A stretch of DNA of 64,000 bases from Anaeromyxobacteraceae bacterium (GCA_047602405.1 JASGHJ010000001.1:960001-1024000), one strand, 5' to 3'; positions 44,900 to 61,250 are shown, counted from the stretch's first letter. Program-made: numbers and translations. Notes: generated by a model from the letters alone, not told the origin.

Positions 44900-47491
44900 T
44901 TACCGGTTCGAGAAGGCCGTCGTCTGGAGCCCGTACCCGCGCACGAACACCGGGTCCGCGCCGTCGCCCGCCACGTCGGGGAGCTGGGCCGCCGCGGCGG
45001 CGTCGCTCGCGGGGAGCGCGAAGGGCAGCTTCCCGGTGCCAGCAAGGATGCCGAAGGCGACGTCCAGCGCGGTCTTGTCGCCGTACGGGTTCCCGGGGAG
45101 CGCCCCCGAGAAGTCGAGGTAGAGCGCGCTCACCTTGTAGGTGTCGGACAGCAGTTCCCCGACGACCGACGGACGCCAGGCGTCCACGATGACGACGAGC
45201 TGGGCCCTCGAGCCGGGCATGGCGTCGATGGCCGCCCGGGCGGCGGCGACGGGCGCGAGGATCTCGGCGTCGGTCGCAGCGTACGAGAGCGAGCCCGTCG
45301 GCAGCCCGAGCGCGCCCGCGTCCGGGTCGAGCGTCCAGGGCGCCTTCACGCGGACGAAGACGTAGTCGGAGCAGGCCATCCGCTCGGCGTCGGTGGTGAC
45401 CGGCGTGCTGGACCAGCCGCAGACTCGAGCGCCGTTCATCATCGAGGTGTAGCCGGACGAGACCGAGTTCACGTACTCGAGATCGAAGTCGCCCGCGAAG
45501 TAGGCGAAGTTCGAGAGCAGGAGGTACGCGGTCCCGGGCGGCGCCGGCAGCACCTTCAGCGTGCCGTTGCCGGCGTTGAAGGGGTCGTTCGTTTGCGTGC
45601 CGTTGCCGCCGCCGTTCAGGAACCCGGCGGGCTTCTGGACGTTCCGGAGGAGCACCATCCCGCCCCACATCGCGTACAGGCTCTGCTGGTACATCTCGGC
45701 GGTGTGGGTCGGCCCCCCGATGGTGCCGGGCGTCGTCGCGTCGACGTAGGGGTCCTCGAACAGTCCGAGCCGGAACGCGAGCGTAAGGAGCCGCATGGCG
45801 GAGGCCGTGACCCGCGCGTCGTCGAGGCCCGCCGCGGCGAGCGCGTCGAGGTCGCCGAGGCCGACGAAGAGGTCCACGCCCGCGCCGACGGCCTTCGCGA
45901 TGCGCGCTGGCCTCGTGAGCCCCTCGACCCCCCACGGCGTGCCGAGCGGCGCGAGCCCCGCGTCCTCGAGCACCCCCGCGGGGGCGACCACGAGCCCGCC
46001 GAAGCCGAGCCGATCACGCAGGAGGCCCGAGACGAGCGTCGCGTTGAAGGAGGCGCCCACCTGCTCGAGCGTCGCACCGTTCACGGCGCCGATGAACGCG
46101 TTCCAGGGCCCGGCCTCCGGGATGGCCCGGGCCGTCGAGACGCCCGCGACGCCGGCCGCGAGCGCGCCGTCGAACGCGCGCGCGTGCTCCTCGAAGCGGC
46201 CGCCGGGGTAGCTCGTGTACTTGCCCTTCGCGAGCCGCGCGTCGAAGCCACCCTTCGCGGCGCCGGCGCCCGGCCACTCCCCGAGGACGACCGCGACGCC
46301 GTTCCTGCCGAGCGCCGCACCCTGCGCGCCCTTCACGAACGCGGCCGCCATCGCCGAGGCCGTCGCGGAGTCCTCGCCGAAGGTCCACGGCGCGCCCGGC
46401 CACCGCGGATCGGTCGCGAGGTTCGCCGAAGGCTGGAGCACCATCCGGATGCCGAGCGCCCGATACTCTTGGGCCGCGAGCCGGCCCCAGGTCTCCACAC
46501 GGGCGAGGTCGCGCCCCGCGCCGAAGGCCACCTCGGGCGGCCAGTACGTGAGCCCGTTCGCGTGCGTACGCCCCGGCCCCTCGGTGTGCGCGGGCTCCGT
46601 GGAGAGGAGGAACGGTACGCCGAGCGGCGAGCCCTCGCAGCGCGCCTGGAGCGCGTTCGACCAACCCGCGAGCGACCGCAGGGCGCCGCCGGAATTCGTG
46701 GTGGTGGAGGGCCACCACGTGGTGGAGCCGGAGCGGACACCGGCGTCGAGGAGCGCAGCGGTCGCGGGGGCGAGGCCGGTCGCGCCGGCCGCGTGCACGT
46801 CGGCGAGCGCGGGGTGGGCGAGCAGCGCGCGGCGGCCCGCGGCGCCGAGGCGCGTGGCGAGGTCGGCCGCGCGCAGGGCGGGCGACAGCGTCCAGTCCTC
46901 GTACGGCGTGAGGGCGCCGTCGCCGTCGAGGTCCTTGAACCTGAGCGACACGTCGCAGGGGAAGGAGAGCCCGAGGTGCGTCCCCTGGAACTGCTTCGTG
47001 AACTCGCGAACGGCCTTGCCCGACGACGGATGCACCGTCACGTCCGGCGCGGCGGCCTGCAGCGCCGTGCGGAGCGCGACGTTCTCCGGGAGGTCGCACC
47101 AGGACAGGCACGTGCCTCCCCAGCAGGCCTCCTTCGAGCCGCAGTCCTCGTCCTTCCCGCACGCGGGGTAGACGAGCGGGACGCACACCTGCGAGACGCA
47201 GCCCTGGCCCGCCGGGCACTCCGGCGCGCCACGGCAGGGGATGAAGTAGTGGCAGTGGTCGTCCACGCAGTCGGCGCCGCCGCCCGGGAGCGGATTGCAG
47301 TCACCGACCTTGCGGCAGGCCCCGGCCTCGAGCGGAAGGCAGGCGCCGTCCGCGCAGTAGAGCTTCGCCGAGCAGTCCTCGTGGACCGTGCAGACCGGGC
47401 CGGGCTCGGGATCCGGCTTCGCGGGGTCGCTGCACGCGGCGAGCGCGGCGAGGAGTGCGGCGGCGAGGAAGAACGTGAGCCTGCGGTCCAT
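44900..47491 (-). CDS. Lipoprotein: Cys-rich repeats + glycoside hydrolase family 3 fold with degenerate catalytic motifs (copy A)
   Basis: From MDRRLTFFLAAALLAALAAC; FKDLDGDGALTPYEDW, EYRALGI, TDPRW, TFGED, PWGVEGL, LGLFEDPYVD, GKLPFALP. Confidence 0.82.
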   Translation of the reverse strand: MDRRLTFFLAAALLAALAACSDPAKPDPEPGPVCTVHEDCSAKLYCADGACLPLEAGACRKVGDCNPLPGGGADCVDDHCHYFIPCRGAPECPAGQGCVSQVCVPLVYPACGKDEDCGSKEACWGGTCLSWCDLPENVALRTALQAAAPDVTVHPSSGKAVREFTKQFQGTHLGLSFPCDVSLRFKDLDGDGALTPYEDWTLSPALRAADLATRLGAAGRRALLAHPALADVHAAGATGLAPATAALLDAGVRSGSTTWWPSTTTNSGGALRSLAGWSNALQARCEGSPLGVPFLLSTEPAHTEGPGRTHANGLTYWPPEVAFGAGRDLARVETWGRLAAQEYRALGIRMVLQPSANLATDPRWPGAPWTFGEDSATASAMAAAFVKGAQGAALGRNGVAVVLGEWPGAGAAKGGFDARLAKGKYTSYPGGRFEEHARAFDGALAAGVAGVSTARAIPEAGPWNAFIGAVNGATLEQVGASFNATLVSGLLRDRLGFGGLVVAPAGVLEDAGLAPLGTPWGVEGLTRPARIAKAVGAGVDLFVGLGDLDALAAAGLDDARVTASAMRLLTLAFRLGLFEDPYVDATTPGTIGGPTHTAEMYQQSLYAMWGGMVLLRNVQKPAGFLNGGGNGTQTNDPFNAGNGTLKVLPAPPGTAYLLLSNFAYFAGDFDLEYVNSVSSGYTSMMNGARVCGWSSTPVTTDAERMACSDYVFVRVKAPWTLDPDAGALGLPTGSLSYAATDAEILAPVAAARAAIDAMPGSRAQLVVIVDAWRPSVVGELLSDTYKVSALYLDFSGALPGNPYGDKTALDVAFGILAGTGKLPFALPASDAAAAAQLPDVAGDGADPVFVRGYGLQTTAFSNR

Positions 47492-47502
47492 GGTGTCGCC
47501 TC

Positions 47503-49920
47503 TCAGAAGTGCTGCGTCTCGAGCCCGTAGCCGCGCACGAAGGTCGCGTCCGCGCCGTCGCCGGGGACGTCCGAAAGCTGCGCCGCCGCGGCCTCGTCGC
47601 TCGCGGGCAGCGCGACCGGCAGCTTCCCGGTGCCGGACACGACCCCGAAGATCACGTCGAGCGCGGCCTTGTCGCCGTCCGGGTTGGCGGGCCGCGCGCC
47701 GGACCAGCTCACGTAGAGCGCGCTCGGGGCGTACGCGAGCACCTCGCTCACGACCGGCGGGCGGCCGGCGTCCACGATGACGACGAGCTGCGCCTTCGAG
47801 TCCGGGTGCGCGTCGAGCGCGGCCCGCGCCGCCGCCACCGGCGCGAGCCAAGAGGGGTCGGTGCCCGCATAGGTGAGCGAAGGGGTGGGCAGCGCGAAGG
47901 GCCCCGAGTCGGGGTCGAGCGCCCACGGCGCGCGGATCCGGACGAGCACGTAGTCGGAGGCCGCCATCTTCTCGGCCTCGGTCAGCGACGCGAGCGTCGG
48001 CACGCGGTTCACGAGCACGCCGTAGCCGGCGGAGACCGAGTCGACCCAGTCGAGGTCGAAGTCGCCGGCCACGTAGAACCACGTCGGCCGGCCCGTCCCC
48101 ATGTACTCCATGCCGACGGGCGCCGGCAGCACGCGCAGGGTGCCGTTGCCGGCGTTCCGGTGGTCGCCGGTCTGCGTGCCGTCGCCGCCTCCGTTCAACC
48201 ACCCGGCGGGCTTCGGAACGTTCCGGAGCAGCACCATGCCGCCGTACATCGCCCGCAGCGCCTCCTCGCGCGCGGCGTAGCTCCCGATCCAGGCGTCGGG
48301 GTCCGCGTACGGAACCTCGAAGAGCCCGAGCTGGAACATGAGCCGCAGCACCTTTCGCGCGGCGCCAGCGACCTGGGCCTCCGAGAGGTGCGCGTCGTCG
48401 ATCGCCGTCAGGCTCGCGAGCCCGAGGAACTGGTCGACGCCCGCGCCCACCGCCTGCGCGATCCGCTGCGGGCGCGTGAGCGCCTCCACGCCCCACGGCG
48501 CGCCGAAGGGCGCGAGCCCGGCGTCCTCGATCGCGCCCGGCGGGGCGAGGACGAGCCCGGAGTGGCGGCCGAGGAGCTGCGCGTTGAACGACGCGCCCGC
48601 CTGCTGGATCTTCTGCCCGAGGAGCGGGTCGGCGAGGGTGCCCCACGTGCCGTACGCGGGGATGGCGTAGCCGGGCATGAGCCCGGCGGCGCCGGTGCAG
48701 AACGCGGCCGCGTGGGCCTCGAAGCGGTTGCCGTCGTAGGCGGTGTACCGCCCCTTCGAGAGCCGCGCGTCGAGGCCTCCCCTCGCGGCCCCCGCGCCGC
48801 GGTAGCCAGCGAGCACGACCGCGAGGCTCGTCCTCCCGAGCGTCGTCCCTTGCGCGCCCTCAACGTACGCCCCGGCGAACCCGGTGGTGGTCGCGAGGTC
48901 CTCGCCGAAGGTCCACGGCACGCCCGGCCAGCGCGGGTCGGTCGCGAGGTTGCCCGCGTGCGAGACGACGAGGCGCACGCCGATCGCGCGGAGCTCGAGC
49001 GCGGTGTACTTCCCGAAGGCGGAGGCCCGGCCCTGGTCGAAGCTGGCGGCGATGGCGAGCTCGGGCGGCCAGGCGGTGAAGCCCGGCGAGCGGACCCGGC
49101 CCTCGCCGTCGACGTGCGCCGGCGCCGAGGAGAGCAGGAAGGGCACGCCGAGCGGCGCGGCCTCGCAGCGGGCCTGGAGGTAGTTCGCCCAGCTCCTCCG
49201 CGAGAACGGGGTCGAGGAGGTCGCGGCCGTCTGGCCCGCGCGGACGCCCGCGTCGACGAGCGCGCGCGTGGCCTCGTTCGGGAGGAGCGACGACGAGCTG
49301 GGCACGTCGGAGAGGACCGGGTGCGCGAGGAGCGCGCGCAGGCCGGAGGGGCCGAGCCGCGAGGCGAGGTCGGTGACGCGCTCGTCGGTGGTGAGCGTCC
49401 AGTCCTCGTAGGGCTGGAGCGCGCCGTCGCCGGAGAGGTCCTTGAACTTCAGGCCCACGCCGCACAGGACCGCCGGGTTCCCGGCCTCGCTCGCGAAGGT
49501 CCTCCGGACCGTGATGACCGTCTTGCCGGATCCCGGGTCCACGACGAGCGCGGGCTGGGCCGACGCGAGCTCGGAGACCCGCACCAGGTTCGGCGCGAGG
49601 TCGCACTCCGGCACGCAGCGCAGCTCGAGGCAGGGCCCCTCGGTGGTCCCCCCGCAGGCCTGCTCGACGCACTGCTCGTCGGCGGCGCAGTCCGCGGCGC
49701 GCTCGCACCGGCCGGCCGGAAGCGGCGCGCACAGCCCGGTCTCGCAGCCGAAGCCCGCCGGGCAGTCCCCGTGGTCCACGCAGACCGTCTCACACGCCTC
49801 ATCGCCCGGGCAGCGGGGGTGCGCGGGGCCGTGCCGCCCAGGGCCGTCGCAGGCGGCGAGCGCCGCGCCCAGGGCGAAGAGCAAGAGGAGCCTGGAGGTG
49901 GCGCGGGGCGGGCGTGGCAT
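47503..49920 (-). CDS. Lipoprotein: Cys-rich repeats + glycoside hydrolase family 3 fold with degenerate catalytic motifs (copy B)
   Basis: ALAA-C lipobox; FKDLSGDGALQPYEDW, TDPRW, TFGED, PWGVEAL, GKLPVALP; collinear paralogue of copy A. Confidence 0.82.
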   Translation of the reverse strand: MPRPPRATSRLLLLFALGAALAACDGPGRHGPAHPRCPGDEACETVCVDHGDCPAGFGCETGLCAPLPAGRCERAADCAADEQCVEQACGGTTEGPCLELRCVPECDLAPNLVRVSELASAQPALVVDPGSGKTVITVRRTFASEAGNPAVLCGVGLKFKDLSGDGALQPYEDWTLTTDERVTDLASRLGPSGLRALLAHPVLSDVPSSSSLLPNEATRALVDAGVRAGQTAATSSTPFSRRSWANYLQARCEAAPLGVPFLLSSAPAHVDGEGRVRSPGFTAWPPELAIAASFDQGRASAFGKYTALELRAIGVRLVVSHAGNLATDPRWPGVPWTFGEDLATTTGFAGAYVEGAQGTTLGRTSLAVVLAGYRGAGAARGGLDARLSKGRYTAYDGNRFEAHAAAFCTGAAGLMPGYAIPAYGTWGTLADPLLGQKIQQAGASFNAQLLGRHSGLVLAPPGAIEDAGLAPFGAPWGVEALTRPQRIAQAVGAGVDQFLGLASLTAIDDAHLSEAQVAGAARKVLRLMFQLGLFEVPYADPDAWIGSYAAREEALRAMYGGMVLLRNVPKPAGWLNGGGDGTQTGDHRNAGNGTLRVLPAPVGMEYMGTGRPTWFYVAGDFDLDWVDSVSAGYGVLVNRVPTLASLTEAEKMAASDYVLVRIRAPWALDPDSGPFALPTPSLTYAGTDPSWLAPVAAARAALDAHPDSKAQLVVIVDAGRPPVVSEVLAYAPSALYVSWSGARPANPDGDKAALDVIFGVVSGTGKLPVALPASDEAAAAQLSDVPGDGADATFVRGYGLETQHF

Positions 49921-50114: not shown

Positions 50115-51953
50115 TCAGGCTGCGGCGGCCTGCACGAGCGCCCGGACGTTCAGGATCAGGCCGACCTGTCCGGCCCCGTGGATGCCCGCGCCGCCGAACA
50201 GCTCGACGTGCTCGAGCCCGGACCCCAGGCTCTTCACGACGACCTGCTGCTGCGCGAGGACGTCGTCGACGAGCAGCCCGAACCGTCGCTCCTCCGACTC
50301 GAGCACCATCACGAGCGCCTCGGCGGGGTCGTGGTGTGCGTCGGGGATCTCGAGGAGATTCCCGAGCCGCACGAGCGGGAGGATCCGCCCACGCATCGAG
50401 AGCGCCTCGTGCCCGCCTGCGCGGGTCTTCACCATGTCGGGGGCCGGGCGGATCGACTCCACGACCGCGAGGGTCGGGACGAGGAAGCGCTCCTTGCCGC
50501 AGGCGATCAGCATGGCGTCGACCGTCGTCAGCGTGAGCGGCATCACGAGCCGCACGGTCGTGCCGGCCCCGGGCGTCGTGGTGGCGTGCACGCGGCCGCG
50601 CAGCCCCTCGAGCCGCAGCTTGATCGCGTCGAGCGACGGCAGCGGGCCGCCGCCGTCCGGGTCGCCGGGGGGCGGCCACGCGCCGGGCGCGAGGAGGAGC
50701 GCGTCCATCGCCTCGTCGTCCGCCGGGGCCTGGCCGGCGGCGCGGAGCCGCTCGACGACCGCCGCGCGGTCGATCCCCGCCCCGTCGTCCGACACCTCCA
50801 CGACCACCTGGCCGGCCTCGGTCCGCGCCGAGATCCGCACGGTGCCGCGGCTGGGCTTCCCGGCGGCCTCGCGGTCGGCGCGCGGCTCGATGCAGTGGGC
50901 GATCGCGGCGCGCACGAGCGCGAGCAGCAGGTCGGCGAGGTTGTCCACGATGAGCCGGTCGAGCTCGGTGGCGTCACCGAGGGTGACGATCCGGACCTGC
51001 TTGCCCGCGCGCCGCGCGAGATCGCGGGCGCCGCGGGAGACCCGCTGGAAGAGCTCGCTCGCGTGATCCATCCGGAGGCGGGTCCCGGCGTCGGTGAGAT
51101 CGCGGGTGACCTTGGCCAGCTGGCCCATCAGCCTGCGGCCGGCCTCCGAGGCGGCGCCCCGGAACTCCGGCACGCTCCGCAGGGCCGACTCCACCACCAC
51201 GAGCTCGCCGATGGCCTCCATGAGCAGGTCGAGCCGCGCCTGCTCGACGCGGGTGAGGACGTTTCGCTGGCCGCCGACGGGGCCGTCGGCCCCCCGCGCG
51301 TGGCGCGCCTGCGCGCGGAGCGCCCGGCCCACGAGCGCCGCGTCCACGAGGTGGGAGGCCACGAGCTCCTCACCCAGGCGCCGGCCGCTCTTCACCTGCG
51401 CCTCGAGCGCGCGGTCGATCACCGCCTGCGGCACGTCGAAGGGTGGGCCCGCGAGGAGCTCGCCCAGCCGCTCGCCGCCGCGCACCTCGGGCAGCGGCGC
51501 CTCGTCCACGTCCGCGCCCGCCCGGAGCGCCGCCAGCCGCTCCACCACGGGCGCGGCCTCGGTCCCGTCCGGCAGCGCCGTGCCTGCGTCGAGGTGGACG
51601 AAGATCTCGTCGAGGTAGGTCCGGACGATGCCGCCCGTGTCGTAGAGCGCGTCGAGCCCGGCGCCGCCGATCGCCCGGTTCCGCTCGCGGCTCCAGCGCA
51701 GGAGCGCGTGCGCCCCGGCCGTCAACGGCGCGATGCCGTCGAGCCGCAGCGCCGCGGCCCGGGTGGCGAGCGTCATGTACCCGTCGTCGAGCGCCTGCAG
51801 GTTGAAGAGGTGCGGGTCGCGCTCGGCGAGGAGCAGCTGCTCGTCCAGGCCGTCGAGCACCTCGGCGGTCTCGGCGGCGAACTGGACGAGCTGCTCGGCG
51901 CGCGAGGTGGCCTCCTCGGCGCCGGTGGGGCCGGGATTCGAGCTGGGGTCCAT
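50115..51953 (-). CDS. Degenerate CheA-like protein (pseudokinase) with a tandem MshEN-like motif
   Basis: CheA domain order (Hpt-like, dimerisation RLDLLMEAIGELVV, HATPase, CheW), but the Hpt His site reads YMTLAT and the N-box reads ALVRAAIAHC. Confidence 0.82.
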   Translation of the reverse strand: MDPSSNPGPTGAEEATSRAEQLVQFAAETAEVLDGLDEQLLLAERDPHLFNLQALDDGYMTLATRAAALRLDGIAPLTAGAHALLRWSRERNRAIGGAGLDALYDTGGIVRTYLDEIFVHLDAGTALPDGTEAAPVVERLAALRAGADVDEAPLPEVRGGERLGELLAGPPFDVPQAVIDRALEAQVKSGRRLGEELVASHLVDAALVGRALRAQARHARGADGPVGGQRNVLTRVEQARLDLLMEAIGELVVVESALRSVPEFRGAASEAGRRLMGQLAKVTRDLTDAGTRLRMDHASELFQRVSRGARDLARRAGKQVRIVTLGDATELDRLIVDNLADLLLALVRAAIAHCIEPRADREAAGKPSRGTVRISARTEAGQVVVEVSDDGAGIDRAAVVERLRAAGQAPADDEAMDALLLAPGAWPPPGDPDGGGPLPSLDAIKLRLEGLRGRVHATTTPGAGTTVRLVMPLTLTTVDAMLIACGKERFLVPTLAVVESIRPAPDMVKTRAGGHEALSMRGRILPLVRLGNLLEIPDAHHDPAEALVMVLESEERRFGLLVDDVLAQQQVVVKSLGSGLEHVELFGGAGIHGAGQVGLILNVRALVQAAAA

Positions 51954-51974: not shown

Positions 51975-52508
51975 TCAGGCGCGCGCGGTCGCGGCCTCCG
52001 GGCGAGCGGCCGCCTGGGCGACCACCGCGGCGGTCGAGGCGAGGTCCGCCTCGGAGCTCGCGAGCACCCGGTCGATGTCGAGCAGGATGATGAAGCCCTT
52101 GCCGGCCTTGCCCATGCCGGTGATGTGCTCGAGGCGCATCCCGGTGCCGAACGAGGGCGCGGGCTCGATGTCGGCGGGCCCGAGGTCGACGACCTCGCTG
52201 ACCGCGTCGGCGATGACACCCAGGGTGAGCACCTCGTCACCGGAGCGGGTCTCCACGACGAGCACGCAGGTGCGCTTCGTGGTGGGCACCTCCTGGCGGC
52301 CGAACTTCACCGCGAGGTCCACGACCGGCACCACCGAGCCGCGCACGTTGATGACGCCGCGGATGCTGGTGGGCGTGCCCGGCACGCGGGTGACCTCCTC
52401 GTACTGCAGGATCTCCTTCACCTTGAGGATCGGCATCCCGAAGTCGGTGCCGCCCACCACGAACGAGAGGAACTGCTTCACCTGCTCCGCGGCTTCGGTG
52501 GCGCTCAC
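51975..52508 (-). CDS. cheW: CheW
   Basis: From (V)SATEAAEQ: QFLSFVVG, ILKVKEI, VTRVPGTPTSIRGVINVRGSVVPVVDL; GGAGG upstream. Confidence 0.93.
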   Translation of the reverse strand: MSATEAAEQVKQFLSFVVGGTDFGMPILKVKEILQYEEVTRVPGTPTSIRGVINVRGSVVPVVDLAVKFGRQEVPTTKRTCVLVVETRSGDEVLTLGVIADAVSEVVDLGPADIEPAPSFGTGMRLEHITGMGKAGKGFIILLDIDRVLASSEADLASTAAVVAQAAARPEAATARA

Positions 52509-52522
52509 GAGGTCACCTCCCC

Positions 52523-54181
52523 CTAGAACCGCTGGAAGCCGCCCTCGGCGTGCGTCCCGTTCTTCTGCGCGGGCGGCGGCAGCACCGGGTGCTCGGGGGC
52601 CGCGGCCGGGGCGTGGGCGGCGGCGAGGCGGGCCGCGGGCTTGCGGACCGCGGCGGTGTGCCCGCCGCCGTTGGCGAACTGGAAGAAGGACACCGTCTGG
52701 AGCAGCGCCTCGGCCTGGCCGGACATCTCCTCGGCGGTGGAGGAGAGCTCCTCGGCGGCGGACGAGTTCCGCTGCGTGACCTGGTCGACCGTGGTCATCG
52801 CCTTGGAGACCTGGCTGACGCCCGTGCTCTGCTCCTTCGAGGCCGCCGCGACCTCCTGGACGAGGTCGGCGGTCTTGCGGATGGCCGGCACGAGCTCGGC
52901 GATCAGCGCGCCCGACCGCTGCGCCACCTTCACCGACGAGCCGGCGAGCTCGGAGATCTCCTTCGCGGCCTTCTGCGAGCGCTCGGCGAGCTTGCGGACC
53001 TCGGTCGCGACGACGGCGAAGCCCTTGCCGTGCTCGCCGGCGCGGGCGGCCTCGATCGCCGCGTTCAGGGCGAGGAGGTTCGTCTGGTAGGCGATCTCCT
53101 CGATGATCGAGATCTTCTCGGCGATCGAGTTCATCGCGTCGACCGTCTGCTCGACCGACTTGCCGCTGTCGGCGGCGTTGCGCGCGCCCTCGTTCGCCAT
53201 CTTCTCGGTCTGGCGGGAGTTCTCGGCGTTCTGGTTGATCGAGGCGCTCATCTCCTCGAGCGAGGAGGTCGTCTCCTCGACGCTCGCGGCCTGCTCGCCG
53301 GTGCCCTGGGAGAGGGCCTGCGACGTCGCGGCCACCTGGGTGGCGGCGCTCGTCAGCGCCTCGGCGCCGCCACGCACCTCGCCGACGACCTCGCGGAGCT
53401 TCTCCACCATCGTGTTGAGCGCGGCGGCGAGCTTGCCGACCTCGTCGGCGCTGTGGACGTTGACCGACTTCGAGAGGTCGCCCGCGGCGACCGCGGCGGC
53501 GAGCTCGAGCCCCTGGACGAGCGGCCCGGCGATCGCCCTCGAGACCACCACGCCGAACAGCGCCGCGACCCCGAGGCCCGCGAGGACCAGGATGATCATC
53601 AGCCGGGTGGCGTCCGAGGCGAGCTCGGCGTTGACCTTCGCCTTCTCCTCGGCCTGCTTGATCTTGAGCTCGGCGAGCTCGTTCAGCGCGGCGTCCGCCT
53701 CCTTGGCGAGCTCCACGGAGTTCTTGTCCCGGAGCAGCGCGGTCGCCTCGGCGTTCTTGCGCTCGAGCGCGAGCTTGATCACGGGATCCTTCACCGCCGT
53801 CCCGTAACGGTGGCTCGCCTCGCTGAACCTCTCGAAGATCTTGCGGACCTCCGGGGCGCGGATCGACTTCCCGAACTCCTCGGTGTTGTCGCCGAGGGTC
53901 TTCTCGATCCCCGCGATCCGGGCCTCGTACTCCTTCATCTTGCCCATGTCCTCCTCGATGATGATGTCGCGGAGGTTCACGCGGACGCGCTGGAACGCGG
54001 TCGCGATGGTGACGAGGTCGCCGAGGGGCTTCGTGTTGACCTCGGCCATGTCGTCGGCGCGCTCGTCCAGCTCGCGCAGGTTCTTGATGCCCCAGAACCC
54101 GACGGCACCGGTGATGAGCGCGAGCGAGAGGAAGCTGACGAGGAGCTTCGTGGCGACGCGGAGATCGGCGAACCACTTCAT
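52523..54181 (-). CDS. Transmembrane MCP with a four-helix-bundle sensor and C-terminal pentapeptide
   Basis: From [13 protein letters not shown]: two TMs, [34 protein letters not shown]; ends in a flexible linker then GFQRF. Confidence 0.94.
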
Positions 54182-54552: not shown

Positions 54553-54596
54553 GTGGGGGCGGGGACGCGGCGGAGCCACGCGCCCGGAAGGTGACC

Positions 54597-54968
54597 ATGT
54601 CGAAGAAGAAGATCCTGCTGGTGGACGACTCGTCGACCGTCCTCCTCATGGAGAAGATGATCCTGGCGAAGAACCAGTACGACGTCGTCGAGGCGCGCGA
54701 CGGGCAGGAGGGCGTCGCGAAGGCGCTCGCCGAGAAGCCCGACCTCATCCTCATGGACGTCGTGATGCCGAAGATGGACGGCTTCGAGGCCGTCAAGCGG
54801 CTGCGCGCCGAGGAGCCGACGCGCGCGACCCCCATCATCATGGTGACCACGCGCGGCGAGCTCGAGAGCGTCGAGTCCGGCTATGCGTCCGGCTGCACCG
54901 ACTACGTGACCAAGCCCATCAACGGGCTCGATCTCCTCACCAAGGTGAAGAGCTGCCTCGGGCAGTGA
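54597..54968 (+). CDS. Single-domain response regulator (CheY-like)
   Basis: ILLVDDS, LMDVVMP, VTT, YVTKPI. Confidence 0.92.
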   Translation: MSKKKILLVDDSSTVLLMEKMILAKNQYDVVEARDGQEGVAKALAEKPDLILMDVVMPKMDGFEAVKRLRAEEPTRATPIIMVTTRGELESVESGYASGCTDYVTKPINGLDLLTKVKSCLGQ

Positions 54969-54975
54969 GGTGACC

Positions 54976-55557
54976 ATGGCGCACCTTGCGGTGGTGGTCG
55001 ACGGCGAGGAGATGGACCTGCGCGATCGGATCGCGGCCCTCGAGGAGGAGCTGCGCCGGACCTCCGACGCCTGGGTCGACTCGGCCGACCGGGTCAGCGA
55101 GTTCGTGCTGCTGCACGCGGCGGTGCGGCAGATCCACGCGGCCCGCGGCCGCGAGGAGCTCCTGCAGGCCCTGCAGGAGATCGTGATCAACGTGCTCGGC
55201 TCGGAGGAGCTCGTGATCTTCACGCGGGAGGGCGACGAGCTCCGCCTGGCCCGCGCGTTCGGCGTCCCGGAGGAGCCCGTGCGCGTGCTGCGGCTCGGCG
55301 AGGGGCCCATCGGCGCGACCACCGCGGCCGGCGTCTTCCGGGTGGCCGCGTGGGACGGGCCCTTCGTGGGCGATCCGAAGCTCACCGCCTGCGTGCCGCT
55401 CGTGGCGGGCGGCGAGGTCGAGGGCGCGATCGCGTTCTGGACCATGCTCGGCCACAAGCCCGAGCTGCTCGATCCGGACCGCGAGGTGATGGACATGCTC
55501 TCCCACCACGCCGGGCAGGCCATGCGCCTGCTCCGCCTCACCGGCCGGATCGCATGA
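54976..55557 (+). CDS. Coiled-coil + GAF-domain protein
   Basis: LQEIVINVLGSEE, GEGPIG, TACVPL...GAIA; no output domain. Confidence 0.78.
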   Translation: MAHLAVVVDGEEMDLRDRIAALEEELRRTSDAWVDSADRVSEFVLLHAAVRQIHAARGREELLQALQEIVINVLGSEELVIFTREGDELRLARAFGVPEEPVRVLRLGEGPIGATTAAGVFRVAAWDGPFVGDPKLTACVPLVAGGEVEGAIAFWTMLGHKPELLDPDREVMDMLSHHAGQAMRLLRLTGRIA

Positions 55558-56057
55558 GACCGGCCGGGCAGCTCGACCCGCCAGCGGCGGAGCACGGCGC
55601 GCCCGACCCCGAGGGCCGCGCCCGCGTGTACCTGCACGCCGGGCAGCTCTCGGCGCCGGCGTGGCCGGCCCAGATCACCACCGTCCTCGGCTCGTGCGTC
55701 GCGGTCTGCCTCTTCGACGCCGGCGTGAAGGTCGGCGGGATGAACCACTACCTGCTCGCGCAGCCCGTGAACGGCGAGCACACCCCCCGCTTCGGCGCGG
55801 TGGCGGTGCCCGCCCTCATCGACGCGGTCGTCGCGGGCGGCGGGCGGCGCGGCGCCCTGCAGGCGAAGGTCTTCGGCGGGGCCGCGGTCACGAGCGCGAG
55901 CGGGCGCCGCTCGCTCGGCGCGGAGAACGCGGCGCTGGCCCTGCACCTCCTCACCACCGCCGGGATCCCGGTCCTGCAGACCGACCTCGGCGGGCAGCGC
56001 GGGCGCAAGCTCATCTTCCACACCGACGACGGCTCGGCGTGGGTGCGGCAGCTCTAG
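55554..56057 (+). CDS. cheD: Chemoreceptor glutamine deamidase CheD
   Basis: TTVLGSCVAVCLFD, GGMNHY, KVFGGA, DLGGQRGRK; ATGA overlap with the GAF gene. Confidence 0.93.
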   Translation: MRPAGQLDPPAAEHGAPDPEGRARVYLHAGQLSAPAWPAQITTVLGSCVAVCLFDAGVKVGGMNHYLLAQPVNGEHTPRFGAVAVPALIDAVVAGGGRRGALQAKVFGGAAVTSASGRRSLGAENAALALHLLTTAGIPVLQTDLGGQRGRKLIFHTDDGSAWVRQL

Positions 56058-56066
56058 GAGCGGGCG

Positions 56067-57746
56067 ATGGAAGAGTTCGAGATCGACAGAGAGGCGCTGC
56101 TCGGTGCGTTCCTCGCGGAGTCGGAGGAGGTCCTCGCGCGGATGGAGCAGCAGCTCGTCGCGCTCGAGGCCGCGCCCGGTGACGAGGAGGCCCTGAACGC
56201 GGTCTTCCGCGACGCGCACACGATGAAGGGCGGGTCGTCCCTCGTCGGCTTCGACGCGGTGAAGGAGCTCGCCCACGACATCGAGCAGGTGCTCGAGCGG
56301 CTGCGCAAGCACGAGCTCGTCGCGACGAACGCGGTGGTGACCCTGCTCCTCCGCTCGGTCGACGTGCTCCGCGCCGCGCTCACCGACGCCACCGCCGGCA
56401 AGACCGCCCCCTCCGAGGCCACCCTCGCCTTCCGCCGCAGCCTCGCCGAGGCCGCCGCCGACGAGCCCACGCCGGGCGCGGCCCCCGCCCAGGCCGGCGC
56501 CGCGGCCCCCGCGGAGACGGGCGCCGCGCCCGCCGCCGCCGCACCGGGCCAGGCGCACGCCCAGGCCCGCACGCTCCGCGTCGACGTGAACCGCCTCGAC
56601 CGCATGCTCGACCTCTCCGGCGAGATCGCGATCGCCCGGGGCCGGCTCACCGAGCTCCTCGAGCGCGGCGAGGCGAGCGGCGAGGAGGTCCTCGCGGCGC
56701 ACCGCGAGACCGACCGGCTCTACCTGGATCTCCAGGAGCTCATCATGAAGGCCCGGATGGTGCCGATCGGGCCGGTGTTCTACCCGCACGCGCGCACGGT
56801 GCGGGACCTCTCCACGGCCCAGGGCAAGCACGCCCGCCTCGTGGTGGAGGGCGCCGACGTCGAGGTGGACACCTCGGTGGTCGAGCAGATCCGCGACCCG
56901 ATCCTCCACATGGTCCGCAACGCCCTCGACCACGGCGTCGAGACCCCGGACGCGCGCCGCGCCGCCGGCAAGGACCCGATGGCCACGGTCACCCTGCGCG
57001 CCTTCCAGGAGGCGGGCTCGATGGTGATCGAGGTGCAGGACGACGGCGGCGGCCTCGACCGCGCCCGCATCGCCGCGAAGGCCGCCGCGAAGGGCATCCT
57101 CGAGGACCCCGCCCGGGCGAGCGACGAGGAGATCGCCCGGGCGATCTTCGAGCCGGGCTTCTCCACGAACGACGTGGTCACCGACGTCTCGGGCCGCGGC
57201 GTCGGAATGGACGTCGTGCGCCGCAACGTGGAGGCGCTGCGCGGCTCGGTCGGCGTGTCGAGCGCCCCCGGCAAGGGCACGACCATCTCGATGCGCGTGC
57301 CGCTCACCCTCGCCATCATCCAGGGCTTCCGCGTCCGCATCTCCGACCAGACCTACATCCTGCCGCTCGACACGGTCGTCGAGTGCCTGGAGCTGCCCGT
57401 CGGCGGCGACGCGAACGCGGTCACCGGCGTCATGAACGTGCGCGGCAAGCCGCTCGCCTACCTGCGCCTGCGCGCGATGTTCGGCCTGCCGGCCCGCGCC
57501 GGCGCGCGGGAGAACATCGTGGTGATCCGGCACGGCGGGCACACCGCCGGGCTCGCGGTCGACGCCCTGCTCGGCGAGTCGAGCACGGTCATCAAGCCGC
57601 TCGGCGCGATGTTCCGGAACCTCCCCGGCGTCGCGGGCTCCTCCATCCTGGGCGACGGGCGGGTGGCGCTGATCCTGGACGTCGGCGGGCTCGTCCGCGA
57701 GACGCTCAAGCGCACGGCGTCCGAGCTCGAGGCGCGGGCGGCCTGA
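56067..57746 (+). CDS. cheA: CheA, catalytically intact, no P2 domain
   Basis: FRDAHTMKG, HMVRNALDHG, DDGGG, FEPGFST, SGRGVGMDVV, CheW domain. Confidence 0.95.
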   Translation: MEEFEIDREALLGAFLAESEEVLARMEQQLVALEAAPGDEEALNAVFRDAHTMKGGSSLVGFDAVKELAHDIEQVLERLRKHELVATNAVVTLLLRSVDVLRAALTDATAGKTAPSEATLAFRRSLAEAAADEPTPGAAPAQAGAAAPAETGAAPAAAAPGQAHAQARTLRVDVNRLDRMLDLSGEIAIARGRLTELLERGEASGEEVLAAHRETDRLYLDLQELIMKARMVPIGPVFYPHARTVRDLSTAQGKHARLVVEGADVEVDTSVVEQIRDPILHMVRNALDHGVETPDARRAAGKDPMATVTLRAFQEAGSMVIEVQDDGGGLDRARIAAKAAAKGILEDPARASDEEIARAIFEPGFSTNDVVTDVSGRGVGMDVVRRNVEALRGSVGVSSAPGKGTTISMRVPLTLAIIQGFRVRISDQTYILPLDTVVECLELPVGGDANAVTGVMNVRGKPLAYLRLRAMFGLPARAGARENIVVIRHGGHTAGLAVDALLGESSTVIKPLGAMFRNLPGVAGSSILGDGRVALILDVGGLVRETLKRTASELEARAA

Positions 57747-57748
57747 CG

Positions 57749-58645
57749 ATGGCCGAGGCCGCCGCGAGATCCCTCGTCGAGCGGGACGCCCCCGCCGCCA
57801 TCCGCGAACCCTCCGACGCGGACTTCGCGCGCTACCAGGTGTTCGTGAAGCGCGAGGCGGGCATCCACCTCACGCCGGTGAAGAAGGCGTTGCTGGTCGG
57901 CCGGCTCGCGCGCCGCCTGCGCGAGCTGAAGCTCGACTGGCGCGGGTACCTCGAGCTAGCGAAGGTCGACGAGCCCGAGCGCATCCGGATGCTCGACAGC
58001 ATCGCGACCAACGAGACCCACTTCTTCCGCGAGGCGGCGCACTGGGAGTACCTGACCCAGGACCTCTTCCCGCGCTGGCAGGCGGAGGCCGACGCCGGAA
58101 AGCGTCCGAGGCGCGTGCGGGTCTGGAGCGCGGCCTGCTCCACCGGCGAGGAGCCCTACACGCTCGCGATGGTGCTCCTCGCGTCCTTCCCGACCGGGTG
58201 GGCGCTCGAGATCTTCGCCTCCGACCTCTCGACGAAGGTGCTCGACCGCGCCCGGAACGCGACCTGGCCGCTCGAGAAGTCGGCGGAGATCCCGCGGGCG
58301 TACCTCGAGGCGTACATGCTGCGCGGCACCGGCGAGCAGGGCGGGCTCATGCGCGCCGGGCCGGAGCTCCGGGCGCTCTGCACCTTCCGCCGGGTGAACC
58401 TCCTCTGCGGCCCGTTCCCGGAGGGCGACTTCGACCTCGTCTTCTGCCGGAACGTGCTCATCTACTTCGACCACGAGACGAAGACCGCGGTGGTCGACCA
58501 CCTGGTGAGCCGCCTCGCCCGCGGCGGCAACCTGTTCATCGGCCACGCCGAGACCCTGGCCGGGCTCTGCCCGCGCGTCCGGCAGGTCCGGCCCACCGTG
58601 TACGGCCACGTCGGCGAGGACGGCGGCCGCGGGGGCGGCCGGTGA
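57749..58645 (+). CDS. cheR: Chemoreceptor methyltransferase CheR
   Basis: From MAEAAARS: TNETHFFRE, WSAACSTGEEPYTLAM, FCRNVLIYFD, GHAE. Confidence 0.95.
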   Translation: MAEAAARSLVERDAPAAIREPSDADFARYQVFVKREAGIHLTPVKKALLVGRLARRLRELKLDWRGYLELAKVDEPERIRMLDSIATNETHFFREAAHWEYLTQDLFPRWQAEADAGKRPRRVRVWSAACSTGEEPYTLAMVLLASFPTGWALEIFASDLSTKVLDRARNATWPLEKSAEIPRAYLEAYMLRGTGEQGGLMRAGPELRALCTFRRVNLLCGPFPEGDFDLVFCRNVLIYFDHETKTAVVDHLVSRLARGGNLFIGHAETLAGLCPRVRQVRPTVYGHVGEDGGRGGGR

Positions 58646-59709
58646 AGACCCCGCTGCGCGTGCTCGTGGTCGACGACTCCGCCGTCGTGCGGCAGGTGTT
58701 GACCTCGATCCTCACGCAGGCGGGCATGGAGGTCGCGACCGCGCCCGACCCGGTGATCGCGCTCCAGAAGATCGAGCGGTCCCGGCCGGACGTGGTGACG
58801 CTCGACATCGAGATGCCGCGGATGGACGGCCTCACCTTCCTCCGCCGCGTGATGTCGGAGCAGCCGCTCCCGGTGGTGGTCTGCTCCGGGCTCGCGGAGT
58901 CCGGCTCGGAGGTCGCCCTGCGCGCGCTGGAGGAGGGCGCGCTCGACGTCATCGAGAAGCCGAAGGTGGGCCTGAAGGGCTTCCTCGAGGACTCGGCCGC
59001 CCGGCTGGTTCACGTGGTCCGCGCCGCCGCCGCGGCCGACCTCTCGCGCAGCGTGCGGCGCCGCGCCCCGGGCGCGCCCGCCACGGCGCCGGGCCGCCCC
59101 GCCGCGCCGCCCGAGCCCGCCTCGTCGGCCATCAAGGCGACGACGCACAAGGTCGCCGTCATCGGCGCCTCCACCGGCGGCACCGAGGCGCTCCGGGTCG
59201 TGCTCGAGGCGCTCCCGCCCGACGCACCGGGCATCGCGATCGTGCAGCACATGCCGGAGTACTTCACCGGCCAGTTCGCGAAGCGGCTCGACCAGTCGTG
59301 CCGGATCGAGGTGAAGGAGGCCGCGCCGGGCGACCGGCTCGTCCCCGGCCGCGCGCTCATCGCGCCGGGCAACCGGCACCTCGTGGTCCGCCGCACCGGC
59401 GCGCTCTACGTGACCGACCTCGTGGACGGCGAGCGGGTGGGCCACCACCGCCCGAGCGTGGACGTGCTCTTCCACTCCGCGGCGGAGGCGTGCGGCCGGA
59501 ACGTCATGGGCGTCATCCTCACCGGGATGGGCGCCGACGGCGCCGACGGCATGCTCGCGATGCGGCAGGCGGGCGCCTTCAACGTCGCGCAGGACGAGGC
59601 GACCTCGGTCGTGTTCGGCATGCCGAAGGAGGCGATCGCCGCGGGCGGGGTGGACGAGGTCCTTCCGCTCGAGCGGATCGCCTCGGCGATCGTGCGCTGG
59701 GCGAGGTAG
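58642..59709 (+). CDS. cheB: Methylesterase CheB
   Basis: Receiver (VVDDS, LDIEMP) plus GASTGG, VQHM, HRPSVDVLF, TGMGADG; GTGA overlap with cheR. Confidence 0.95.
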   Translation: MKTPLRVLVVDDSAVVRQVLTSILTQAGMEVATAPDPVIALQKIERSRPDVVTLDIEMPRMDGLTFLRRVMSEQPLPVVVCSGLAESGSEVALRALEEGALDVIEKPKVGLKGFLEDSAARLVHVVRAAAAADLSRSVRRRAPGAPATAPGRPAAPPEPASSAIKATTHKVAVIGASTGGTEALRVVLEALPPDAPGIAIVQHMPEYFTGQFAKRLDQSCRIEVKEAAPGDRLVPGRALIAPGNRHLVVRRTGALYVTDLVDGERVGHHRPSVDVLFHSAAEACGRNVMGVILTGMGADGADGMLAMRQAGAFNVAQDEATSVVFGMPKEAIAAGGVDEVLPLERIASAIVRWAR

Positions 59710-60515: not shown

Positions 60516-61250
60516 ATGGGCCACGAGTTCCTCAGCATCTACCCCGCGAAGGCCGCCGAGTACCTCCTCGCCGTCAGCTACCTCCTCCTCTTCATCCCCT
60601 TCTGGCGCTACGTCCAGGGCGCCCGCCGCGCCGAGGTTCCTGCGACCGCCGAGGTCGCGATCCCCGCCGCCGCCCAGCTCGCCGTCGCCGCCGCGAAGCC
60701 CGCCCCGGCCGCGAGGAAGCCCGCGCCGAGCCCCGCCGCCGGCTGGTTCCAGGTCCCCTCCGACGTCTACCTGCACCCGGGCCACACCTGGGCGAAGCTC
60801 CTCGCCGACGGCACGGTCGCGGTCGGCCTCGACGACCTCGCCCACCGGCTCGTCGCCGCGGAGCGCACCTCGGTCCCGAGCGTCGGCGCCCACGTGTTCC
60901 AGGGCGACGCCGCCATCGACCTCACCGCGACCGGGAAGCGCGTCTCCGCGCTCTCGCCCATCGACGGCACCGTCGTCGCCGTGAACACGAACCGTGACGA
61001 CGCCGACGCCTACGGCGCGGGCTGGCTCTTCAAGGTGAAGCCGTCGCGCCTCGCCGCGAACCTCCGCCAGCTGCACCAGGGCGCCGAGGCCCGGCTGCTC
61101 GTCGACGACGCCGCCGCCATCCTCGCGCGCCGCGCGAACCCCGAGATGGCGCAGGTCCTCCAGGACGGCGGCGCCCCGGTCCACGGCATCGCCGCCGCGC
61201 TCGCCGGCGACGACTGGGACGCGCTCGCCCGCGAGATCCTCCGCAGCTGA
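60516..61250 (+). CDS. Membrane-anchored glycine-cleavage-H-like protein lacking the lipoyl motif
   Basis: N-terminal TM, then YLHPGHTWAK...VAVGLDD...SPIDGTVVAVN...DAYGAGWLFKV; no ESVK motif. Confidence 0.8.
   Translation: MGHEFLSIYPAKAAEYLLAVSYLLLFIPFWRYVQGARRAEVPATAEVAIPAAAQLAVAAAKPAPAARKPAPSPAAGWFQVPSDVYLHPGHTWAKLLADGTVAVGLDDLAHRLVAAERTSVPSVGAHVFQGDAAIDLTATGKRVSALSPIDGTVVAVNTNRDDADAYGAGWLFKVKPSRLAANLRQLHQGAEARLLVDDAAAILARRANPEMAQVLQDGGAPVHGIAAALAGDDWDALAREILRS

Follow-up and report, generated by a model that had tools for sequence, protein, structure and literature searches.

The window analysed here is a stretch of 64,000 nucleotides from an Anaeromyxobacteraceae bacterium (GCA_047602405.1, JASGHJ010000001.1:960001-1024000; genome G000). 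On its minus strand, a chemoreceptor (MCP) gene of 552 aa (52523..54181) is the first of a run of three genes that continues with a cheW of 177 aa (51975..52508) and ends with a cheA-like ORF of 612 aa (50115..51953; protein P0002), hereafter pseudo-cheA. The MCP combines a 4HB sensor, a HAMP domain, a short hairpin and a C-terminal xFxxF. Pseudo-cheA has no internal stop, and its ATG lies 21 nt past the cheW stop with a GGAGA directly 5' of it. Divergent from this run, an operon on the plus strand (54591..59709) has the order cheY, GAF, cheD, cheA, cheR and cheB, and its cheA (56067-57746) is intact and belongs to another lineage. A scan for promoters and terminators found none.

A sequence-only reading of the window had described pseudo-CheA as catalytically dead, and pairwise alignment to the CheA at 56067 bore out each of the substitutions behind that description. 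HTMKG of the intact protein aligns to MTLAT (His to M60), HMVRNALDHG to ALVRAAIAHC (Asn to A349), FEPGFST to LAPGAWP and SGRGVGMD to GGGPLPSLD, and the conserved Glu of the third P1 helix is H82. In CheA, the N-box Asn binds Mg and the G2 glycines bind phosphate. Pseudo-CheA is thereby without the phospho-His, the N-box Asn, the F box and the G2 box of an active CheA, while the DxGxG (G1/D) box is kept.

According to Pfam and the predicted model, the order of parts is that of CheA homologues, namely a P1-like bundle, P3, P4 and P5, all encoded on the minus strand. The P1/Hpt-like five-helix bundle (residues 18-148, 51510..51902) is followed by the P3 dimerisation domain (residues 234-294, 51072..51254; PF02895, 31 bits against a cut-off of 23), the P4 HATPase-fold domain (residues 296-473, 50535..51068) with a rebuilt ATP-lid (residues 423-442, 50628..50687), and the P5 CheW-like domain (residues 474-608, 50130..50534; PF01584, 78.9 bits). 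The claim of an intact ORF that keeps its dimerisation and CheW domains also held, with H-kinase_dim, HATPase_c and CheW all above their Pfam cut-offs. The profile scan as a whole gave a mixed outcome: HATPase_c and CheW passed, while MshEN stayed below its cut-off and Hpt (PF01627) had no Pfam match in P0002; the CheA at 56067 matches Hpt as well as H-kinase_dim, HATPase_c and CheW. An AlphaFold model of pseudo-CheA, built on a 12-row alignment, had a mean pLDDT of 72.5, with P3 at low confidence as a monomer. Its P1-like part (pLDDT 74-94 per 10-residue block) aligned to the P1 of CheA3 (3kyj; Z 17.4, rmsd 2.1, 127 aligned) and its P4 to 1i58 (Z 21.5, rmsd 2.4, 178 aligned; both VIA-align), and a fold search matched P5 to CheW (Z 16.2). 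Taken together with the aligned substitutions, these model matches predict that the folds of P1, P4 and P5 are retained and the catalytic residues gone.

Four orthologues, P0003 to P0006 (90, 67, 56 and 51% identity; P0003 from genome G010, P0006 from G001), all lack the His, the N-box Asn and G2, and the same four came back both when the N-terminal half was the query (32 proteins) and in a profile search (85 proteins). The closest relatives are records named Anaeromyxobacter sp. None of the five dead members, down to 51% identity, has a stop or frameshift, and D389, D390, G391 and G393 of the DxGxG box are invariant among them. The dead form occurs in 3 of the 92 family genomes (G000, G010 and G001), or 3/37 within the genus. 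In this family survey, 17/92 genomes matched at E <=1e-100, with 14 candidates scored per genome; the other 14 matched genomes kept N-box and G2 throughout, and nine showed the MshEN pattern.

Searching 1.84 billion representatives gave a single cluster for the dead clade (P0003). The best 150 representatives included 148 new proteins, none of which lacked all three motifs; 40 of the 148 were intact CheAs with the MshEN pattern. A metagenome pattern scan showed no dead member among the matches listed, and the ESM Atlas returned only matches below 0.9. Four runs of sludge or wastewater, from four studies, yielded contigs that match portions of pseudo-cheA at ~90% identity; one contig spans the end of the MCP gene, cheW and most of pseudo-cheA. 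These contigs may stem from the G010 species and do not count as independent support.

A tandem MshEN-like motif without its internal Gly had been proposed in the place where P2 would be, and the segment was found there as described (residues 162-215, 51309..51470, minus strand). It consists of two repeats, residues 162-186 (with one extra residue) and 192-215, separated by a spacer of five; both turn glycines are gone, with Pro171 and His201 in their places. NCBIfam NF053729 matched pseudo-CheA with E=3.1e-5 and 23.7 bits (27.9 bits in the genome search), which is below the curated cut-off of 38 bits. A profile made from 11 of the genome's own MshEN matches gave P0002 21.3 bits, above chance as judged from 500 shuffled sequences, of which 372 scored and none exceeded 6.7 bits; intact relatives reached 21-44 bits on this profile, most of them more than the 21 bits of P0002. 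Among 177,635 PDB sequences, MshE (5HTL) was the top match for an 80-aa piece (E=0.0016). This match and the retained ligand-contact residues sustain the proposed MshEN descent, and the segment is best described, from its alignment, as MshEN-like rather than a canonical member, real but degenerate.

In the 12-sequence model, the segment forms four helices (163-168, 176-189, 193-199 and 205-221; block pLDDT 77-89). A single-sequence model of the isolated motif gave one long helix and was uninformative. 5HTL was not among the matches listed for the fold search with the whole model, where other domains filled the lists.

The 53-residue MshEN motif was defined in PMC5013675, where Supplementary Table 1 reports that mutating L10, G11, L29, Q32, L39, G40, L58 or Q61 weakened c-di-GMP binding in VcMshEN. 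P0002 retains all eight of these ITC-relevant positions and both Arg (R9 and R38 equivalents); the changes are G18 to Pro, G47 to His, L25 to Ile and L54 to Val. Like VcMshEN (PDB 5HTL), pseudo-CheA has the tandem 24-residue motif, the 5-residue spacer and the contact residues, but it has the one-residue insertion in repeat 1, lacks an MshEN_C subdomain and is fused to a dead CheA instead of an ATPase. The genome itself holds seven GG[DE]EF-motif, two HD-GYP-motif and one EAL-motif frames by pattern scan, and 19 NF053729 matches.

Whether the ligand is still bound divides two explanations. The segment could be an inherited four-helix protein-binding surface that has lost c-di-GMP binding, which would make pseudo-CheA a purely structural scaffold or a dominant-negative spacer. 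The sub-threshold NF053729 score and the loss of both glycines are in keeping with this, given that G18 and G47 are described as needed for the helix turns and that section 12 of the same paper considers binding probably lost in a number of MshEN domains (PMC5013675); His201, moreover, is found in 5/5 dead members where 11/12 intact relatives have Gly. The ligand-contact residues, however, are better kept in the dead than in the intact clade (R9 in 5/5 against 3/12, L29 in 5/5 against 7/12), and the six residues lost by the non-binder XpsE (G11, L29, R38, G40, L58 and Q61; PMC5013675) are all still present in pseudo-CheA. A scaffold of this kind is rather improbable, and the preferred reading of a segment that binds c-di-GMP is the better prediction from these residues, more probable than its opposite by a modest degree.

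Selection was assessed as dN/dS for a single genome pair, G000 against G010. For pseudo-CheA the ratio was 0.163 (CI 0.11-0.22; p 1e-31 against neutrality) between orthologues of 90% identity. By part, it was 0.39 for the P1-like bundle, the least constrained, 0.044 for the MshEN-like segment, 0.037 for P3 (residues 230-295), 0.19 for P4 and 0.10 for P5. Every domain was below neutral, and MshEN, P3 and P5 were tighter than P1 (Fisher p 0.004, 0.0003 and 0.008), while the constraint on the MshEN-like segment showed no significant difference from that on the dead P4 (Fisher p 0.13). The strongest constraint thus lies on P3, the MshEN-like segment and P5. The neighbouring genes for CheA, CheR, CheB, CheD, CheY, CheW and GAF gave 0.08-0.31, the MCP being left out of this range. 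GC3 was 0.97 in pseudo-CheA and 0.98-0.99 in its neighbours, and as a high GC3 would lower dS, the ratios are if anything too high. A dN/dS of 0.71 for G000 against G001 was set aside because synonymous sites are saturated in this pair (52% identity, GC3 0.97).

Pseudo-CheA is accordingly a pseudokinase as the sequence-only reading had claimed: its catalytic residues are lost and the gene is under purifying selection. The alternative of neutral decay, with an incipient pseudogene or a slowly decaying functionless duplicate, could draw on the rarity of the dead form (3/92), the ratio of its P1-like part and the long end branch of the G001 protein (0.89). It is already largely refuted and very improbable, since the overall ratio rejects it, the five members share open frames, losses and a new lid motif, and GC3 resembles that of the neighbours.

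To compare conservation between clades, the four dead members other than P0003 were set against 12 intact relatives. Mean identity in the dead and intact groups was 0.41 and 0.64 for P1, 0.70 and 0.83 for P3, 0.56 and 0.77 for P4, 0.58 and 0.88 for the lid, 0.70 and 0.76 for P5, and 0.71 and 0.63 for the MshEN-like segment, which makes the latter the sole region of six that is more conserved in the dead members. The His column holds M, L, A, F and E in the five dead proteins. In the lid, W426, P427, P428, D433, G434, L438 and L441 are invariant in 5/5 dead and absent in 12/12 intact members, and two changes in P5, A590G and L592H, are fixed in the dead clade. The free His column together with the seven invariant lid residues reads as a loss of catalysis followed by new constraint. 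Three histidines in three different domains, H120, H201 and H592, are also invariant in 5/5 dead members, and H201 and H592 replace a conserved Gly and Leu.

An unconventional activity, such as a nucleotide bound in the rebuilt pocket or one of these histidines serving for phosphate or metal, would account for the invariant DxGxG, the kept P4 fold and the histidines themselves. Both the Asn that binds Mg and the phosphate-binding glycines of G2 are missing, though, and none of the three histidines is at the Hpt site, so I consider this a long shot.

In a 47-row tree (408 columns with an occupancy of at least 30%; 7/47 rows untrimmed to the core), the five dead CheAs formed a clade (100/100) nested in intact Anaeromyxobacteraceae CheAs (100/100), and the dead clade was recovered with 100/100 in three trees. 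Together with the absence of His, N-box Asn and G2 from all five members, this indicates that the death of the enzyme is fixed and old. Among the intact CheAs around the dead clade, most carry a pair of Hpt domains together with the MshEN-like motif, while the CheA at 56067 is a distant long branch. Pseudo-CheA descends from the intact MshEN-bearing CheAs of the flagellar-cluster CheA lineage. An origin by duplication of the neighbouring CheA was ruled out by the tree and by identities of 23% in P3 and 28% in P5, and an origin of the motif within the dead lineage was ruled out by its presence in the intact double-Hpt relatives. The ancestral loci carry long-hairpin receptors, and the intact MshEN-CheA of G049 lies ~22 kb from fliM. 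A broad lineage in Myxococcota (P0007-P0039; loci L040-L054 and L074-L083) consists of intact CheAs that are ~900 aa long, most of which combine two Hpt domains with an MshEN-like module.

Two further proteins, P0040 and P0042, have a single His-less Hpt with N-box and G2 glycines intact and the motif present. They were sister to the dead clade in the core tree (99/98) and in a P1+MshEN tree (97/98); a tree of P3 and P5 only leaves their position unsettled (forks <80), to which long branches may contribute. With only the His missing, they would mark an intermediate step, and the likely order of loss is the first Hpt and the His, then the ATP site. A search of the 92 family genomes did not find P0040. 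Both proteins could phosphorylate the Hpt of another CheA in trans, as CheA4 does.

Position ties pseudo-cheA to the neighbouring system, and sequence ties pseudo-CheA to the flagellar CheA. In G000 and G010 the gene order is the same, and in all three genomes carrying it pseudo-cheA is divergent from cheY-GAF-cheD-cheA. The CheW of the window is 52-59% identical to CheWs that follow the neighbouring-operon cheA and 41-43% to three flagellar-type CheWs, and the MCP is the only short-hairpin receptor among the 21 MCPs listed (17 long, three unclassified). I take 34H (F8) and 36H (F7) to be the labels for hairpin spacings of 70/104 and 77/111. An xFxxF tail as in the window MCP fits the 34H class as treated in PMC2577667. 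In 12 other genomes of the genus, cheW follows cheA in 10/12 and another chemosensory cluster is divergent in 12/12, and no dead CheA was found at their neighbouring-operon loci.

The sensor of the MCP (residues 1-200) is 54% identical to that of its G010 orthologue with a dN/dS of 0.92, against 94% and 0.16 for the rest; from the true start, the whole MCP has 0.52. This divergence suggests a sensor swap or diversifying selection.

With this gene order, pseudo-CheA might work for the short-hairpin (34H-type) system next to it, where it would act as a scaffold or pair with the CheA at 56067, and c-di-GMP would be an input. Its divergent position in all carriers, and its place behind that system's cheW and the sole short-hairpin MCP in G000 and G010, speak for this. 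A heterodimer with the neighbouring active CheA, as the sequence-only reading had envisaged, nevertheless found no support: the low P3 and P5 identities, the distant branch of the neighbour and its truncation in G001 all stand against pairing through P3. In G001, pseudo-cheA is intact and directly divergent from cheY, but the match to the neighbouring CheA ends at residue 250 (L035:9648-10382), no cheW, cheR or cheB was found within 20 kb of locus sequence, and the best MCP match has 54% identity compared with 66-72% in G007 and G015. The G001 assembly is a bin of 94% completeness, and frameshifts occur near this locus. Outward of its cut-short cheA lie genes that by eye resemble a TetR-type regulator and an RND efflux set. 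Service to the neighbouring system is on balance unlikely, if still a serious contender.

Compared with the flagellar-cluster CheA of the same genome, pseudo-CheA shows 41% identity in P3 and 48% in P5. For P3, this CheA alone among the genome's other proteins matches with E <0.4 (E 1e-8), and for P5 it is the best match among those listed (E 5e-36); its gene lies ~5 kb from fliM, and it has no MshEN motif. The long hairpin of the ancestral loci is also that of the 17 long receptors among the 21 MCPs listed, which speaks for a flagellar target. In G000, the flagellar-cluster cheA (C2:1394946-1396770) carries one extra base where P3 begins. G010 and contigs of two runs (X1 and X3) lack this base, which is hence probably an error of the assembly; a genuine insertion would weaken the lean to the flagellar array. 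Against a flagellar target also stands the gene order of G000 and G010, in which pseudo-cheA comes after the only short-hairpin MCP gene and a cheW that belongs with the neighbouring system. Weighing position and sequence, the flagellar long-hairpin (36H-type) array would be the somewhat more likely target of the two.

The reading I favour, tentatively and with the chances a little short of even, is that pseudo-CheA is a selected CheA paralogue acting as a non-catalytic array subunit with a predicted c-di-GMP-binding MshEN-like module. It would dimerise through P3, either with itself or with the MshEN-less flagellar CheA, and P5 would put it in the CheA places of the CheW-receptor lattice. By filling such places it would, as proposed here, hold the lattice without passing phosphate, and c-di-GMP bound between P1 and P3 would alter how far pseudo-CheA occupies or damps the array. 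The sub-threshold motif and its lost turn glycines, A590G and L592H in P5, and the presence in only 3/37 genus genomes count against this role, most members of the genus with the same flagellar CheA doing without pseudo-CheA.

A bolder version holds that a CheA was turned stepwise (His, then ATP site) into a stand-alone c-di-GMP receptor in the flagellar array, with second-messenger control supplied in trans; this is speculative and, as a whole, unlikely. If it were true, the flagellar CheA without MshEN would get in trans what related genera have in cis, and, with pseudo-CheA encoded alongside a second chemosensory system, that system and c-di-GMP would silence swimming at the level of the array.

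Several components of this arrangement are known already, namely CheA-MshEN fusions, CheA paralogues with one dead half, and pseudo-histidine kinases. A fusion of CheA with MshEN_N, the Aeromonas veronii CheA EKB11881, was among the fusions named from sequence in 2016 (PMC5013675). This fusion and the intact double-Hpt Anaeromyxobacteraceae CheAs resemble pseudo-CheA in that a module of the MshEN type separates the Hpt region from the dimerisation domain, and pseudo-CheA is 52% identical to the intact relatives in each of MshEN-like segment, P3 and P5. They differ in keeping His, N-box and G2, whereas in pseudo-CheA the single Hpt is without its His, the ATP site is dead and the lid is rebuilt. 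The MshEN module is thus not peculiar to the dead protein and is inherited from the family's intact CheAs.

The split kinase CheA3/CheA4 of Rhodobacter (Cereibacter) sphaeroides (PMC10782961, PMC6829392) offers a second parallel. CheA3, as described there, shares with pseudo-CheA a degenerate ATPase domain, His-less Hpt copies and a CheW domain, and it localises to the array; however, CheA3 keeps a phosphorylated Hpt and CheA4 a kinase, which work together, while pseudo-CheA has neither. P0040 and P0042, with His lost and ATPase motifs kept, correspond to a CheA4-like state. The survey of 13,673 CheA sequences in PMC10782961 records CheA3 domains that are degenerate and additional Hpt copies without the His, and its available text describes no CheA dead at both sites and mentions neither MshE nor c-di-GMP. 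DivL of Caulobacter (PMC4211667) likewise is presented as a histidine-kinase fold without catalytic output that is reused as a sensing and regulatory module, although DivL is a DHp-CA kinase sensing DivK~P and pseudo-CheA is a CheA-type protein whose P3 and P5 would serve array docking and whose MshEN-like segment is a candidate second-messenger module.

No doubly dead CheA that keeps an MshEN-type module was found in the largely open-access literature searched. The clade is small, with five sequences known only as assemblies, and its function is predicted from sequence. If both c-di-GMP binding and a place in the array were true, pseudo-CheA would represent a new second-messenger route via a catalytically silent lattice subunit. 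Since intact, His-less and fully dead CheAs share the same module, the CheA-MshEN fusion of 2016 becomes directly testable.

Some further features of the surroundings are recorded here. Just downstream of pseudo-cheA, 44900-49920 on the minus strand contains two tandem related long ORFs with Cys-rich N-termini, the second of which has weak GH3 matches, and related genes lie downstream in G010 too. The stand-alone GAF-like protein between cheY and cheD (54970-55557, plus strand) is present in 30/37 genomes of the genus. Beyond the divergent operon, a glycine-cleavage-H-like protein (PF01597) with a hydrophobic N-terminus is encoded at 60516-61250 on the plus strand and is 96% identical in G010.
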